64,000 nt of DNA from Fistulifera solaris. Its lineage: Eukaryota. Positions 59,230 through 64,000 of this stretch are shown here, in pieces (the first letter of the stretch is position 1; each line of letters starts with the position of its first letter). Under the pieces are notes generated by a model. It was given only the letters and a program-made list of their open reading frames with translations, did not search any database and had not been told where the DNA came from. The DNA is taken from contig AP026133.1 of the NCBI GenBank assembly GCA_030295235.1, positions 124,001 through 188,000 of the forward strand, written 5' to 3'. Both the position numbers and the translations under genes were made by a program.

Positions 59230-60624
59230 ATGGCGCGACCTGATCAAGATAAACCGAAACCGAGCATTGTCGACCAAGTCCGGGAAACAGTTTCGCATGT
59301 ATTTGGCGGAGATAACCAAGGCGATAAAACCGTAACGGAAAGGACGGATGAAACCAAGGGAATGATGCAAGACAAAATGTCATCGGGCAACACCAACGAG
59401 AAAACGATTGGCGACGCTACACGCGAAAAGTACGAAGAGCTGATGCAGAACGTTCAGAGCACCTTGTCCGGCAACACCAACAAGGATCTTGGTGACAAGA
59501 CGGCGGACAAGTACCACGAGGGAAAGGGTGCGATTAAAGATACGTTCTCGTCCGGGGACAACAAGGATTTCGGCGACAAAGTTGCGGACAAGTACCACGA
59601 AGGCAAGGGAGCCGTTCAGGATATGGGTGATCAGGCCGCGGACAAGTACCAGCAAGGGAAAGAGTCCGTTCAGGAAACATACCAGCAAGGGAAAGACAAA
59701 TTCTCTGGTGAGCAAGACCTCGGCGACAAGGCCGCTGACAAGTACCACCAGGGCAAAGGCTTCATCAAAGATACCTTACTCTCTGACGAAGGCAAGGATC
59801 TAGGTGACCGCACCGCCGACGCGTACCACGGCACCAAGGGTATGGCTCAAGCCGCGGGTGACAAGATCATCGGTGTCAAGGACTCGATCCAGGACAAGTT
59901 GCATCAGGGCATCGAAACCGTCCAAGACAAGCTGCACCAAAGCAAAGAGACCATTGTTGACAAGTACCAGCAGAGTAAAGAAGCTGCCGAGCAGAAGTAT
60001 GAGCAGAGCAAGCAAGCTGCTCAAGAAACCTACAAGCAGGGAAAGGAAAAGGCTATGGAAGGCAAGGACATGGCTCAGGACAAGTTGCAGCAGGGGAAAG
60101 AAATGGCCCAAGACAAGATGCAGCAGGGCAAAGAAATAGCTCAAGACAAGTGGCAGCAAGGCAAGGACATGGCGCAACAAGGAAAAGAGACTGCTCAGGA
60201 TAAGATGCAGCAGGGAAAGGAAGCGACCCAGGATACATGGCAGCAGGGGAAGGACCTGGCGCAACAAGGAAAAGAAACTGCCCAGGACAAGATGCAGCAA
60301 GGCAAGGAAACGGTGCAGGACAAGTATCAACAAGGAAAAGAGACTACCAAGGAAAAAATGTCTTCCATGGGCGATAAAGCCAAGGATACGTACCAGCAGG
60401 GCAAAGAAACGGCCCAAGACAAGCTTTCGTCTCCTTCCGGTGGATCCAGCGGCAGTCAGGACAAAGTCCCCGAGACCAGTGGCGTGACCGTCAAGATCAT
60501 TGCCAATGACGACAAGAATTTAGGTGACCAGGCCGGTGCGAAATTCAATGAACTGAAAGGCAAAACCCATGCCGAGGACAAATTCTCTACTTACAAGGGA
60601 AACAACCCCGACAAGAAGTATTAA
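59230..60624 (+). CDS. Group 3 LEA-like protein with 11-mer repeats
   Basis: 464 aa; repeated QGKEMAQDKMQ-type 11-mers and GDK.ADKYH.GKG repeats; highly hydrophilic, no Cys. Confidence 0.88.
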   Translation: MARPDQDKPKPSIVDQVRETVSHVFGGDNQGDKTVTERTDETKGMMQDKMSSGNTNEKTIGDATREKYEELMQNVQSTLSGNTNKDLGDKTADKYHEGKGAIKDTFSSGDNKDFGDKVADKYHEGKGAVQDMGDQAADKYQQGKESVQETYQQGKDKFSGEQDLGDKAADKYHQGKGFIKDTLLSDEGKDLGDRTADAYHGTKGMAQAAGDKIIGVKDSIQDKLHQGIETVQDKLHQSKETIVDKYQQSKEAAEQKYEQSKQAAQETYKQGKEKAMEGKDMAQDKLQQGKEMAQDKMQQGKEIAQDKWQQGKDMAQQGKETAQDKMQQGKEATQDTWQQGKDLAQQGKETAQDKMQQGKETVQDKYQQGKETTKEKMSSMGDKAKDTYQQGKETAQDKLSSPSGGSSGSQDKVPETSGVTVKIIANDDKNLGDQAGAKFNELKGKTHAEDKFSTYKGNNPDKKY

Positions 60625-61444
60625 ACGTCTTCTGCATTTTATTGATAGAGCCTCTGAAGATTTGTCTGTCGTCAAAAGGATAAGGAACGAGGCGGGTGGC
60701 CAGTGCCATTAAGCACAGACAAAATGAAAACAGCCGGTTAATAAAAATGCATATTTGTACATGAACATGGTTTACATTTGTAGCGCAATAAATACTTACC
60801 ATTTGATCGCGAAAACGATAAACGCGGCCTTTGTTTGTCTCACGAGCGAGTGCTTCGGCTACCACACCATAAAAACATTTATCAGCCTAAAGCATCTCTT
60901 GCTCAAGGAAGAACAAGGTATTTGTGAATGCATGGCAATTCTTTTCATGCTTCTGCATCCATTCATCTCATGGTCGAACAGAAAAATTGCTCCAGTCTTT
61001 GGCCGCCAAGTTTCATCTTGCGGCCGCCGCGTCTCTGTGTCGCTGTCGCCCTGTGTGTATTGTGTATGCGAAGTAGTCGTGAGTCACGAGTCGCGAGCAT
61101 TACGGAGTACTCCGCATTAGGGAGTATTTAATAAATGTCAGTACCGTCACGACGTGTAACTTGTTTTCTGAACCTAAAAGACGGCCTTTCGTTCGCTCGT
61201 CGCTCGTGCCCGGTCGCACACACACAACGTTTTTTGATTTGTGATGTTTCTTTTTGATTGCGGATTTTGCGACTGACATTTTATTGTGAGTTTGTACGCG
61301 ATAACTCGTTTACTTTTATCTGAGACCCGAACCTTTTCTTGTTTCATCCTAAAGAAATCAGGAGCTTTCGTGTAAACCGCAAGCGATAGGGATCTTATTA
61401 TCGACAGCACTTTCGGTCTTTTTCAATCTTTCAAGAACGAGGGC

Positions 61445-63624
61445 ATGAGGCGTTTATTACGGTGCGGCTTCTGCCCGCTCGTGCTTTTCTTCTTGCTGAC
61501 AGCCGTAAGCTGCTTTACAGAAATACGTTACAGGCAGCACCGAATCGTTGAATTGAAAGTAGCCGAGCAGCACGAGGCTTCATCCGCAGCAACTGCGTCG
61601 ATTCCATCTGACACAATCGTGACTCGGACAGGGGGAGGGGGGTCCGAGGAAGCAACAGTCGAAAAAGTAACGAAGAGTCCGAAACAACAACCAAAAACTT
61701 TGATTTCTGATCATCCTATATTGTCATTAGATCCCTCAAAAGGCTACAATGTCGTCTTGACCCATTCGACGGCCGATTTTGATTCACTCGCTTCCGCGGT
61801 CGGCTTGGCTAAACTATGGTCGGCCGAAGCTGTTCCTACTTCATCGGACGTCAAATCCTTTGACAGTGCTAGCCATGTACCCACCTACGTCGTTCTACCC
61901 CGTGGTGCTCATCCCTCCGTGCAACGCTTCCTTTCGCTGCACAAGCATTTGTTTCCCATTCGATCCTTAAAAGTCTCCCATCCCCCGCAGGTCGTCTCAA
62001 TCGGTTGGCATTGGTCGACGCTCAACGCAAAGAACGATTAATACCGGCCGAAGGCTTGTTGGAACACGCCAAGCGTATTACCGTCGTCGATCATCATGTC
62101 GATCAAGATTCCGATATCGCGGCCGATGATTATGTCGTCGACAAGGTTGGGAGTGTGACCACATTAATAGCCGAACGCTTGCAACAGCAACAAGTCTTAC
62201 TGACGGAAGCGGAAGCGACACTGCTGGCTTTGGGGATTCATGCCGATACGGGCAATTTGTGTTTTGACAATACGACACCCCGGGACGCCTACTCGTTGGC
62301 GTGGTGTTTGTCGCAGGGGGCGAGTCAAACGGCGATTGCCGAACACGTCAATTCACCGCTCAGTCCTGAGCAACAGAGTGTTTTGACGCGGGCGCTGTTG
62401 CACGTTAATACGACCGTTGTCAATGGCGTCACGATATCGACGGTACTGTTGCAAGCGGATGCTTTTATACAGGGCCTGGCGGCGGTGACACAAGATGCGT
62501 TGGAATTGAGCAGCAGTGATATTTTCTTGATGGGGTTAGTGTATGGATCCTCGAAGAGAAAAGATGATTTCTCTGTCTCGGTACAGGCTCTACTACCCTC
62601 CTTGTCACCACCCAATAAGGATGTTGCTCAAACGGAACAATTTTTACGTGATGCTTTTCGTGAGCGAGATTTAGACCAGTCTGGAGATTTGGATGCCAGG
62701 GAAATAAGTCGCGCCTTGAACCAAGCTGGAGTAGTGACCACTCCGTCACAAATTCAAAAGCTGGTCCGTGCTATGGATACCGATGGCGACGGCCAAGTAG
62801 ATTGTCAGGAATTCGTGGATTTTGTCATGGCGCAGCAGCAAAAGCAACAGCAGCAGACCAAGAAGAATCACATGATTGTGATTGGTCGTGTGAAAGCCAG
62901 TGCCAACTTGAAGGACGTGAAATTGAATCATCTGCTAGAACCGTTTGGAGGGGGCGGACACCCGAAAGCAGCCTCGGCCACGTTACGAGTCTTTGAGGAA
63001 ACCCAGGCCGCCGAGATTTTGCAATCGCTGGTCGACCAACTGGTGGAACACGCATTACCTGAACAAGCCACGGTAGCTGATTTCATGATGAGTCCAGTGT
63101 TGTCGGTGACCCCCGACATGACCGAAGTACAGGTAGAGCGCCTCTTTACACGCTTGGATGTCCGGGCCCTGCCGGTGGTCAATCCGACCGACAACACTGT
63201 CATTGGATTAGTCACTTACAAAGAAGTGGCTGCCGCGAAGCAACGGTTGTGGAATAAAGAACAGAAGCGTCAGCAACAAGAACAACAGGCTTTAGCAAAG
63301 GGTGCCTCACTTCCCGTGACGGATGAAAAGCAATTGCACACGACTGTCAAAGCATGGATGAAACAGCATTTTCAGACCGTCGAAGCGAGTGCGACGATGC
63401 AAGATGTGGAATTGATTTTGTTGGAAAACGACATCGGCTGTATACCGGTAGTTGAGACGGGGACTCAAACGTTGGTAGGAATGGTAACACGGACGGATTT
63501 GTTACGCCAACATCGCTATTACCCGTCTCTCCCGTACCACAACAAAGGCATGGCCGATTCGATTGCCGCCCGAAAACCCATAATTGAATTGCGGAAACGA
63601 CTGAAACAGTTCGATATTGAATGA
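61445..63624 (+). CDS. DHH/DHHA1 phosphoesterase with inserted EF-hand pair and C-terminal CBS pair, putatively plastid-targeted (missing A at 61969-61972)
   Basis: Signal + VSC-FTE; LTHSTADFDS, LVD, VVDHH (62089), GIHADTG and GGGGH (62947). EF loops DLDQSGDLDARE and DTDGDGQVDCQE. CBS motifs ALPVV...GLVT and CIPVV...GMVTRTDLL. Confidence 0.88.
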
Positions 63625-64000
63625 TAGAATTTTTCTCCGACCGATATGCGCCATGATCCCATCACTTAGTCTATTCCTGCAATTTACCAGCCATACTCCT
63701 GAAACGCTTGCTACGCGATGACCTTGATTCGAATAAGACTGCAGTAAAAACTATGCTAACACCGAAATCCAATGTCCACTAAAATAATGAAGCATAGATT
63801 ATTCTTGACGACCCGGATCATATGTCATCTTGCCAAGTTGATGACTCTAGAATTCCAGCAGGGTAATGGGTATCATGATACTGTAATCTTTTGTTATAAT
63901 TATTCTGCTTCTTTACTGTGCACCGTAATCACATTGATATTCCGATTGTGACAGAATTAAGGCCGCAATTAATCCATACAATCCCAAGTTGGACGCAAAT

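Follow-up and report, generated by a model that had tools for sequence, protein, structure and literature searches.

Gene organization at the locus

The window analyzed here, a stretch of 64,000 nucleotides from contig AP026133.1 of the diatom Fistulifera solaris, carries at positions 61445–63624 a gene in which a DHH/DHHA1 core is combined with an EF-hand pair and a CBS pair. Its features are as follows (plus strand throughout).

61445–63624, +: whole gene (motifs read from the sequence, domains checked with Pfam)
61445–61972, +: coding part in frame a, residues 1–176, with a poorly conserved presequence and linker followed by the N-terminal half of the DHH domain with motif I (176/176 residues identical to P0272)
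61445–61513, +: start codon and predicted ER signal peptide, MRRLLRCGFCPLVLFFLLTAVSC (sequence, hydrophobic-window heuristic)
61969–61972, +: A4 run, one base short for the intact reading (tta aaa agt, L K S)
61972–63624, +: coding part in frame b, residues 177–726 and TGA stop, with TAG directly after
62017–62253, +: DHH catalytic motifs II–IV (sequence, Pfam)
62407–62547, +: first part of DHHA1, two strands, a helix and a strand ending ...SSDIFLMGLVY (AlphaFold2, alignment with EF-less relatives)
62548–62865, +: EF insert, about 106 residues long, within the DHHA1 hairpin (Pfam EF-hand_7, calmodulin matches)
62866–63054, +: second part of DHHA1, the strand HMIVIGRVKA (G-R-x-K/R conserved), GGGGH and a helix towards the CBS pair
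63064–63510, +: CBS pair, CBS1 at about 63064–63228 and CBS2 at about 63346–63510 (Pfam CBS)
within 63064–63510, +: diatom-specific helical insert between CBS1 and CBS2, AAAKQRLWNKEQKR... (alignment)
63511–63621, +: C-terminal tail, RYYPSLPYHNKG...RKPIIELRKRLKQFDIE, conserved and predicted helical (alignment)

The frame break that the first-pass annotation flagged at 61969–61972 is present in the window, where ORF-A (61445–62041) and ORF-B (62005–63624) are offset from each other by one base. P0272, a public protein of 726 aa from the same locus, named Fistulifera solaris, runs uninterrupted across the break, and the 539-aa frame-b ORF is identical to it at 538 of 539 positions, the sole mismatch being a TTG start, mechanically read as M where P0272 has L. 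At the A-run, P0272, P0270, P0002 and P0001, an intact relative that is 96% identical, all read ...PIRSLKSLPSPAGRLNR...; the public run contigs have an extra base behind 61968 (A in run X1, G in run X4), and the homeologue is in frame (ttG aaa agt). The break is a one-base discrepancy in the A-run and not an intron. The intron candidates across the two frames, pairing GT at 61951 or 61973 with AG at 61989–61990, were rejected, as they would span 40 or 18 nt, too short and in the wrong phase, and the run contigs are without joints. A programmed –1 slip on A-AAA-G would yield the right protein, yet it is unnecessary because the public protein and the run contigs have the extra base and the homeologue is in frame. 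Assembly errors are most commonly of this kind, a single base in a homopolymer. Allowing for the A-run base, the locus reads as 726 codons in a single exon of a diatom nuclear gene.

The same break could mark the window copy as a true pseudogene or null allele of one homeologue, with only the other copy functional: the A4 run leads to a stop 23 codons past the shift, and in run X1 the depth without the inserted base is 39.6 of a summed 74.9. This is improbable, however, given that the public protein of the very same locus is intact and otherwise identical, that one X1 contig (depth 35.3) carries the extra A, and that no further defects occur in 2.2 kb. Of the 40 differences listed between the two sequence versions of the runs, 31 affect a third codon position, and therefore both copies evolve as coding sequence.

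The DHH/DHHA1 catalytic core

DHH motifs I–IV and GGGGH are intact, as had been proposed from the letters alone; their coordinates were read from the sequence and checked with Pfam, with scores far beyond chance. Motif I (D-F-D) lies in frame a at 61775–61783, the Asp of motif II (LVD) at 62017–62019, motif III (DHH) at 62089–62097, motif IV (DTG) at 62245–62253 and GGGGH at 62947–62961. Pfam detects DHHA1 (6.6e-06) and DHH (2.3e-4) in the 539-aa frame-b ORF, the latter as a partial match only, because the N-terminal half of the DHH domain lies in frame a; the intact relative P0001 matches DHH at 5.7e-10 over profile positions 3–125. In P0001 numbering, the motif I residues D166 and D168 and the residues D247, D271, H272, H273, D323, T324 and G325 are invariant in 48/48 orthologues, and G536, R537, G558–H561, K563 and A564 are likewise invariant across the 48.

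The AlphaFold2 model of P0001 contains the two-lobe DHH and DHHA1 fold, with the first part of DHHA1 formed by strands 377–381 and 384–393, helix 400–411 and strand 415–423. At a pTM of 0.44, the placement of the domains in this model is tentative, and so is any communication of the EF pair with the active site. Foldseek matches the model to GdpP, NrnA, DhhP and Rv2837c with probability 1.00 and E values of 1e-15 to 1e-12. The best matches are the GdpP catalytic domain (1.2e-15), a RecJ-like protein of D. radiodurans (8ioo) and DhhP, followed by mycobacterial NrnA, TM1595, Rv2837c and Bacillus NrnA; family II pyrophosphatases come further down the list. A family profile search returned Rv2837c/NrnA (2.6e-20), TmPDE (1.5e-18) and GdpP (6.5e-18).

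NrnA, Rv2837c/CnpB, TM1595, DhhP/Pde2 and the GdpP catalytic domain share the two-lobe fold, motifs I–IV and GGGH with the diatom protein, at 13–16% identity to NrnA/GdpP-type enzymes in structural alignments, and carry neither a CBS pair nor an EF pair. From sequence and model we infer a two-metal DHH/DHHA1 phosphoesterase of the NrnA/GdpP/DhhP type; the shared fold and motifs suggest that the chemistry is probably also the same, acting on short 5'-phosphorylated nucleotides. The structural matches do not tell a nanoRNase from a pAp phosphatase or a cyclic-dinucleotide phosphodiesterase.

A calmodulin-like EF-hand pair inside DHHA1

The EF insert comprises a calmodulin-like EF-hand pair (Pfam boundaries 62638–62826) and a Gln-rich tail. 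The pair matches Pfam EF-hand_7 at 4.8e-12 in the 539-aa frame-b ORF and calmodulins at about 1e-14, and it appears as four helices in the AlphaFold2 model of P0001. A canonical EF loop was taken to span 12 residues, with D first, D/N/S at positions 3 and 5, G at position 6, a hydrophobic residue at position 8 and E last, the helix-flanked loops lying about 36 residues apart. Both loops of the window, DLDQSGDLDARE at 62668–62703 and DTDGDGQVDCQE at 62776–62811, follow the canonical 12-residue pattern, and the two canonical loops originally read at these positions thus stand, with support from Pfam.

The insert occupies the hairpin between the third and fourth DHHA1 strands, directly before the G-R-x-K strand and about 25 residues upstream of GGGH. 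The first-pass annotation had located the EF pair between DTG and GGGGH, which is right; in the model and the alignment the insert sits inside DHHA1 rather than between domains, and Pfam DHHA1 profile positions 44–98 match only downstream of it. By comparison, EF-less relatives have a turn of about 8–10 residues at this position in the alignment. The DHH-to-GGGH spacing is 287–387 in the 21 EF rows of the tree set and 175–190 in most others.

The loop pair is found in 130 of 138 long-spacing proteins, among which the spacing reaches 624 in pair-bearing members. Loop 1 is strictly canonical in 124 and loop 2 in 126 of these 130. The EF-bearing gene is universal among the sampled diatoms, pennate and centric alike, and the EF rows form a single clade (21/21 at a support of 99; 10/10 at 100 in a second tree). 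The earlier suggestion of a gain is borne out by this clade: the pair was gained once, at the base of the diatom clade, in the substrate-binding DHHA1 domain.

The EF pair might nevertheless be a structural or dimerization element unresponsive to Ca2+. The same hairpin carries unrelated low-complexity inserts in the red alga Pyropia and in other algae, and therefore tolerates filler. Yet the Ca2+-ligand positions 1, 3, 5 and 12, together with Gly6, are kept in 124–126 of the 130 proteins, which would not be required of filler. We see little chance that this explanation, or the related one that the protein acts outside the plastid stroma, holds.

The CBS pair and the C-terminal tail

Two CBS domains follow GGGGH, as first annotated, and are matched by Pfam CBS in two stretches of the 539-aa frame-b ORF (1.4e-21). 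Foldseek relates the pair to AcuB with AMP/ADP bound (E about 1e-9). The ribose-phosphate binding motif of CBS domains reads G-h-h-T/S-x-x-D/N. The CBS2 sequence GMVTRTD, invariant across 48 orthologues, fits this motif, whereas CBS1 reads GLVTYKE, with Glu at the last position in place of the canonical Asp/Asn. The C-terminal tail is common to Ectocarpus and Chattonella and absent from cyanobacteria in the alignment, and it stands where bacterial relatives run on into the nucleotidyltransferase. Its residues Y747, Y748, L751, Y753 and R765 (P0001 numbering) are invariant across 48 orthologues, and AlphaFold2 places a helix at 756–780.

CBS domains also occur in a DHH-superfamily enzyme, the CBS-PPase, whose activity is set by adenine nucleotides through the CBS pair. 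That enzyme has a DHHA2 lobe at its C-terminus and carries the CBS pair as an insertion within the DHH domain; the diatom protein, by comparison, has a DHHA1 lobe with GGGH and a C-terminal CBS pair. The NCBIfam matches to CBS-PPase are weak (at most 66 bits against cut-offs of 335–753), and pyrophosphatases rank below NrnA-type chains in Foldseek. An identity as a CBS-domain family II pyrophosphatase was rejected on the DHHA1 lobe, the C-terminal CBS pair and these scores far under the cut-offs.

Descent from the N-terminal module of A-adding enzymes

The best NCBIfam match is NF041569, the A-adding tRNA nucleotidyltransferase (E 1.9e-40, profile positions 44–231 of 880), at 139 bits against a cut-off of 1440. 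Enzymes of this family carry an N-terminal DHH-DHHA1-CBS-CBS module with the same domain order, 31–41% identical to the diatom protein, and in the tree the eukaryotic proteins and the cyanobacterial fused forms lie on the same side of a split with support 100. The closest bacterial family is therefore the one named in the first-pass annotation. A structure search of a protein atlas added a cyanobacterial cluster as a lead only (TM 0.57). Compared with the NF041569 enzymes, the diatom protein lacks the PolyA_pol head and the RNA-binding body, and has an EF insert, a bipartite presequence, an inter-CBS insert and a conserved C-terminal tail of its own. PolyA_pol (PF01743) is absent from the window ORFs and from P0001, and from both the 120 near-length relatives listed and the 58 longer EF-bearing relatives. 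On these sequence comparisons, the protein descends from the cyanobacterial N-terminal DHH-DHHA1-CBS-CBS module but has no nucleotidyltransferase part. With PF01743 missing and the NF041569 score far below the cut-off, 'tRNA nucleotidyltransferase' is a misnomer as a public name.

A continuation into a nucleotidyltransferase domain is countered by the ending of the ORF in TGA TAG and the lack of PolyA_pol in the relatives. The stand-alone state proposed at first is thus correct, but it is not special to this gene: EF-less stand-alone forms occur across red-lineage algae and in bacteria. Among algae they are found in brown algae, raphidophytes, eustigmatophytes and one red alga, with a haptophyte as a lead; examples are Ectocarpus CBN77425.1 ('Phosphoesterase, RecJ-like protein'), Nannochloropsis EWM29703.1, Chattonella, Chrysoparadoxa and Pyropia KAK1864722.1. 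These orthologues have an N-terminal extension and a CBS pair, as in diatoms, and the family forms a eukaryotic clade (44 rows at 100; 50 rows at 99 in the second tree). Further leads from the protein atlas, with feature scores of at most 0.85, were a cluster of haptophytes and, among bacteria, stand-alone clusters of about 440 aa.

Four DHH matches were counted in each of two cyanobacterial genomes, among them an open frame of about 440 aa. On these counts, cyanobacteria have other NrnA-like DHH proteins besides the fused module.

The nearest family being the N-terminal module of A-adding enzymes, the diatom protein might repair or clean up RNA 3' ends in trans with the CCA-adding machinery of the plastid. 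It could, for instance, trim or dephosphorylate tRNA ends that are damaged, a task that the fused ancestor may have had in cis. The fusion is retained across cyanobacteria (among the best 80 genome loci, 79 are cyanobacterial by title and one is titled Tatlockia), which suggests a functional link to tRNA 3' ends. The function of the Nrn-CBS module in bacterial A-adding enzymes is described as unclear in passages of PMC7947759 and PMC13514080, and published accounts call the module dispensable for CCA or A addition. This last statement, the stand-alone forms in bacteria and the lack of an evident tRNA-binding element make such a role unlikely.

Predicted plastid targeting

Plastid proteins of diatoms carry an ER signal peptide with an aromatic residue (Phe) directly after it, at position +1 of an ASAFAP-type cleavage motif. 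The predicted signal peptide of the window gene is followed by Phe at +1 of the predicted cleavage site (61514–61516, ...LLTAVSC|FTE), which makes the plastid location first proposed plausible. Among 108 EF-type orthologues starting with M, a home-made hydrophobic-window heuristic recognizes a signal-peptide-like N-terminus in 50; a small-x-small-F pattern is present in 28 of these and finds no motif in 18, more being visible by eye. The other 58 N-termini have no signal-peptide-like stretch by the heuristic and possibly represent incomplete gene calls. The +1 Phe contexts in orthologues include AYAF, TSAF, GSAF, SHAF, TDAF and similar. The protein is probably targeted to the plastid, judging from its presequence.

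Work in the ER lumen, in the periplastidial space or after secretion is a further conceivable fate, raised by the heuristic nature of the targeting call and by several acidic residues after the predicted cleavage site. The recurrence of the +1 Phe after a signal peptide across orthologues, and the restriction of the family to plastid-bearing lineages grouping with cyanobacteria, speak against it, and we hold a non-stromal location, or an EF pair without response to Ca2+, to be very doubtful.

Function and regulation

On balance we lean, with modest confidence, towards a plastid phosphoesterase of the NrnA/GdpP/DhhP type that descends from the cyanobacterial module, carries a diatom EF insert and is putatively controlled by adenylates and Ca2+. 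Substrate, Ca2+ control and adenylate control are each inferred. The ER signal peptide and subsequent Phe would send the protein into the plastid, where it would hydrolyze short 5'-phosphorylated nucleotides, the likeliest being nanoRNA or pApA to NMPs, or pAp to AMP. The CBS pair would bind an adenosine ligand and the EF pair Ca2+, and each ligand might move the DHHA1 and DHH lobes against each other, so that turnover would track plastid energy charge and Ca2+ transients.

Alternatively, the enzyme could be a phosphodiesterase that was kept from the cyanobacterial ancestor and cleaves c-di-AMP to pApA or AMP, forming a Ca2+-gated plastid signaling node. The best Foldseek match is the GdpP catalytic domain, with DhhP and a cyclic-di-AMP phosphodiesterase (9n0l) also matched, and the cyclase domain DAC occurs in 2/2 cyanobacterial genomes carrying the fused relative. 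However, the structural scores favor GdpP over NrnA-type enzymes by no meaningful margin, and none of the papers listed by a literature search pairs diadenylate cyclase with diatoms; c-di-AMP is accordingly a poor candidate for the main substrate.

Lineage-specific EF hands on plastid proteins of cyanobacterial or red-algal descent have been described. For KEA3, Ca2+ binding and loss of function upon EF-hand deletion were shown according to PMC9306478; Tic20-EF is an ochrophyte plastid protein with an acquired EF hand, reported in PMC5462543, which covers 770 conserved ochrophyte plastid proteins. KEA3 is a precedent for control of a plastid protein by a diatom-specific EF hand. In KEA3 and Tic20-EF the EF hands are terminal and belong to membrane transport proteins, whereas the diatom DHH protein is a soluble enzyme with the EF pair inserted into a hairpin of a catalytic lobe.

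In a bolder and rather doubtful version of the preferred reading, diatoms wired a cyanobacterium-derived plastid phosphodiesterase to cytosol-style Ca2+ signaling, such that stromal Ca2+ and adenylate state gate the decay of signaling nucleotides. Light–dark transitions or stress might trigger the stromal Ca2+ transient, and pAp, pApA or c-di-AMP would be the candidate nucleotides switched. If true, this would be a plastid nucleotide-signaling step found only in diatoms.

The gene is real, conserved in diatoms and apparently unstudied: our literature search found no paper describing the DHH-DHHA1-EF-CBS architecture and none on DHHA1 in Phaeodactylum, in line with the first-pass suggestion that it could be undescribed. 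The public family names 'tRNA nucleotidyltransferase', 'polyA polymerase' and 'Calmodulin' are misleading and need correction. Diatoms carry out a large share of marine photosynthesis, and sensing and signal relay in their plastids are poorly known. This gene joins a putative nucleotide- or nanoRNA-degrading enzyme to two sensor modules. Of these, the EF pair arose in diatoms and is canonical throughout the group. If the regulation proposed here is true, it would link Ca2+ signaling to plastid RNA turnover or to signaling nucleotides such as pAp, and would offer a way to approach the Nrn-CBS module of bacterial A-adding enzymes, which is itself unexplained.

Domain architecture of the gene

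The gene at 61445–63624 (+) is carried by two open reading frames, of which the second overlaps the first with a one-base offset; frame b is open upstream as far as about 61873. The DHH motifs, two EF-hand loops, GGGGH motif and two CBS domains reported in the first-pass annotation were all found by sequence reading and Pfam, which confirms the architecture described there. In the 539-aa ORF, Pfam matched CBS in two stretches (1.4e-21), EF-hand_7 (4.8e-12), and DHHA1 (6.6e-06) together with a partial DHH domain.

Features of the gene (window positions; motifs from sequence reading)
61445–62041, +, ORF-A (frame a), 198 aa
61775–61783, +, motif I, D-F-D
62005–63624, +, ORF-B (frame b), 539 aa
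62017–62019, +, motif II Asp
62089–62097, +, DHH
62245–62253, +, DTG
62668–62703, +, EF loop DLDQSGDLDARE
62776–62811, +, EF loop DTDGDGQVDCQE
62947–62961, +, GGGGH

Alignments reveal further features of the diatom proteins, namely an extra DHH-domain segment (...FDSASHVPT...) and a diatom-specific helical insert, KQRLWNKEQKR, with several invariant residues between CBS1 and CBS2 (63229–63345). A conserved C-terminal tail (63511–63621) is common to diatoms, the brown alga Ectocarpus and the raphidophyte Chattonella, whereas the bacterial relatives run on into the nucleotidyltransferase at this position. Upstream of the gene, an ORF of 464 aa (59230–60624, +) encodes a Gln/Lys/Gly-rich repeat protein with QQGKE... 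units and tandem repeats of 33 and 87 nt at 60061–60360; its match to LEA_4 is weak (E 9.7e-06) and under the cut-off.

The frame break and two gene copies

The nearest proteins, P0001 (96% identity) and P0002 (90%), read ...HKHLFPIRSLK-SLPSPAGRLNRLALVDAQ... across the break, that is, frame a to the Lys codon at 61970–72 and frame b from AGT; this reading needs five A, and the window has four (61969–61972). P0272, a 726-aa public protein clustered with P0001 and named ‘tRNA nucleotidyltransferase [Fistulifera solaris]’, is identical to ORF-A over residues 1–176 and to ORF-B at 538 of 539 residues, the sole exception being the mechanical TTG start, with 11 bridging residues between the two matches. 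The public record of the same locus is thus intact.

The gene was also found in four public runs (X1–X4), all from one study, whose contigs were compared with 61300–63800. These contigs carry no joints over this range, which rules out an intron as the cause of the break. One X1 contig has an A inserted behind 61968 (depth 35.3 of a summed 74.9), and the sole X4 contig at the break, which represents the divergent one of two gene versions, has a G inserted there (10.6 of 10.6), its reading ttG aaa agt likewise bringing the frame back. An assembly or homopolymer discrepancy is thus the most probable cause of the break; that the four-A sequence is a real null allele is improbable, given the intact public record and the restored frames in the runs.

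Two versions of the gene occur in X1–X4, one identical to the window and the other about 5–8% different (for example, 21 of 265 and 27 of 319 letters). As 31 of the 40 listed differences fall at third codon positions of frame b, both versions evolve as coding sequence. These patterns fit a pair of homeologues, each under purifying selection, in an organism that we take to be allodiploid; P0270 (95%) was taken as the other homeologue.

A stand-alone family found across diatoms

A near-length search gave 621 relatives among 8000 candidates scored, with source names including the diatoms Epithemia, Mayamaea, Cylindrotheca and Bacillariaceae as well as MMETSP transcripts marked complete. EF-hand, DHH and/or DHHA1, and CBS families were present in all 120 relatives listed of the 621. 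A search for longer relatives returned 65 proteins, 58 of them EF-bearing and named among others Seminavis, Nitzschia, Thalassiosira, Cyclotella, Stephanodiscus, Skeletonema, Odontella and Pseudo-nitzschia; five others had the nucleotidyltransferase domain PolyA_pol with DHH and/or CBS and without EF hands (the two source-named ones being cyanobacterial), and two were unrelated multi-EF proteins. PolyA_pol was found in none of the 120 listed near-length relatives and in none of the 58 EF-bearing longer ones, in agreement with the proposed stand-alone form lacking the nucleotidyltransferase.

An exhaustive representative search yielded 7148 matches with E<=1e-3, of which 331 had E<=1e-30, and Pfam was run on 42 of the best 150. 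EF hands occurred in one of these (P0124) and PolyA_pol in eight; all eight are 570–965 aa long, and their module begins near residue 3–12. The remaining 33 had neither and were mostly DHH plus CBS, with DHHA1 in some; most were 500–680 aa with N-terminal extensions. By source name, such EF-less stand-alone forms come from Ectocarpus and Cladosiphon (brown algae), Chattonella, Nannochloropsis, Chrysoparadoxa and the red alga Pyropia, and fused forms from cyanobacteria, Candidatus Schekmanbacteria and Heliophilum. Further candidates, as leads only, came from the Protein Atlas: a cluster of haptophyte proteins and clusters of bacterial stand-alone proteins about 440 aa long. When genomes were scanned with a cyanobacterial profile, 79 of the best 80 loci had cyanobacterial titles and the other was titled Tatlockia. 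Two cyanobacterial genomes behind these loci (G001 and G002, for L023 and L008) each have four DHH-domain matches, two in long open frames (690–833 aa) of the fused A-adding type and one in an open frame of about 440 aa, and one diadenylate cyclase (DAC) gene.

The EF-hand pair in the DHHA1 domain

DHH and GGGH are 287–387 residues apart in the tree set's 21 EF rows, compared to 175–190 in most others, and up to 624 apart among 130 pair-bearing proteins. Alignment with EF-less relatives shows the EF pair, which is similar to the lobes of calmodulin (about 1e-14 to 1e-17), in place of a turn of about 8–10 residues flanked by the strands ...SSDIFLMGLVY and HMIVIGRVKA. The Pfam DHHA1 profile matched the gene's ORF only at positions 44–98, after the insert, and EF-less P0133 continuously. 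In an AlphaFold2 model of P0001 (mean pLDDT 74, pTM 0.44), strands 415–423 and 530–538 enclose helices 449–463, 473–482, 489–499 and 509–525, with GGGH at 558–561. The EF pair thus lies inside the substrate-binding lobe, directly ahead of a conserved G-R-x-K/R strand, which we take to be the counterpart of NrnA's arginine-rich substrate motif; the cyanobacterial relatives have G/A-R-S-R at this strand.

The loop pair is present in 130 of 138 proteins with a spacing of at least 250 (one loop in two, none in six). Of these 130, loop 1 is strictly canonical in 124 and loop 2 in 126. The six loop-less proteins are the Pyropia pair P0185/P0297, with a different low-complexity insert, and P0144, P0159, P0178 and P0308, EF-less rows of the eukaryotic clade. 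At the hairpin that holds the diatom EF pair (62548–62865), P0297, P0144, P0159 and P0178 have unrelated, EF-loop-free inserts, which suggests a hot spot for insertions.

Phylogeny

The first tree was built by IQ-TREE quick with SH-aLRT from 462 columns of 74 core sequences; for it, the first 120 near-identical diatom matches were cut down to 17, and fragments without either motif were dropped. All 21 EF rows form one clade (support 99), nested with EF-less ochrophytes in a 33-row clade (99), itself within a eukaryotic clade of 44 rows (100); the opposite side holds 30 rows, of which 27 are fused and three short. Only one event of gain is needed for the EF insert. The second tree (100 rows), with bacterial stand-alone forms of about 440 aa added, splits with support 100 into 30 rows, comprising Heliophilum-type fused forms and the bacterial stand-alone forms, and 70 rows, comprising cyanobacterial fused forms and all eukaryotes, the latter a 50-row clade (99). 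For this unrooted tree, in which the branching within the 70 rows is without resolution, the simplest but unproven reading is that the eukaryotic forms came from cyanobacteria by endosymbiosis and lost the transferase.

Likely chemistry

Across the 48 orthologues aligned, neither GGGH nor any catalytic residue varies. The top Foldseek match is the GdpP catalytic domain (1.2e-15), followed by a D. radiodurans RecJ-like protein, DhhP, mycobacterial NrnA, TM1595, Rv2837c and Bacillus NrnA, with family II pyrophosphatases below the NrnA-type matches; for the CBS part, the match is AcuB in complex with AMP/ADP. A profile built from 15 family members without EF hands matches Rv2837c/NrnA (2.6e-20), TmPDE (1.5e-18) and GdpP (6.5e-18), with no pyrophosphatase among its best 60 matches, and the top NCBIfam match, the A-adding enzyme model, scores 139 bits against a cut-off of 1440. 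These matches place the protein, as judged from sequence and fold similarity, in the DHH/DHHA1 superfamily and the Nrn-CBS module family; it is not a nucleotidyltransferase. By analogy, short 5'-phosphorylated nucleotides (nanoRNA, pApA, pAp) would be the most likely substrates. Passages in PMC7947759, PMC8208693 and PMC13514080 describe the Nrn/DHH plus CBS extension of bacterial A-adding/CCA-adding enzymes as dispensable for nucleotide addition and call its function unclear.

Location and regulation

The N-terminus, MRRLLRCGFCPLVLFFLLTAVSC/FTE, has the look of a signal peptide with Phe at +1, a hallmark of diatom plastid import, which suggests a plastid location. With our own heuristic, 50 of 108 EF-type sequences starting with M have a signal-peptide-like stretch; 28 of these match small-x-small-F (AYAF, TSAF, GSAF, SHAF, TDAF and others), three have L, one has W, and 18 show no pattern match, among them the window's own protein P0272, whose VSC/F falls outside the pattern. 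The other 58 lack such a stretch, perhaps through incomplete gene calls. Regulation by Ca2+ and adenylates is putative. A precedent comes from KEA3, a plastid protein in which, according to passages of PMC9306478, a diatom-specific EF hand binds Ca2+ and is required for function; an ochrophyte EF-Tic20 fusion is mentioned in a passage of PMC5462543.

Precomputed database annotation already shows the architecture, and the public names given to the protein and its family are inconsistent, partly wrong and misleading (P0272, P0270, P0343, P0366 and P0282: ‘tRNA nucleotidyltransferase’, ‘polyA polymerase’, ‘Calmodulin’, ‘Phosphoesterase, RecJ-like’, ‘nanoRNase/pAp phosphatase’). Full-text literature searches turned up no diatom protein of the DHH-EF-CBS type, though one may be mentioned in a table. 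What is new is the reading, not the sequence. The family, the stand-alone form and the EF pair proposed in the first-pass annotation are borne out, and its plastid nucleotide-signalling node is possible but rather unlikely. The gene product represents an uncharacterised, diatom-wide, EF-hand-bearing form of a red-plastid-lineage Nrn-CBS phosphoesterase, with predicted activity.
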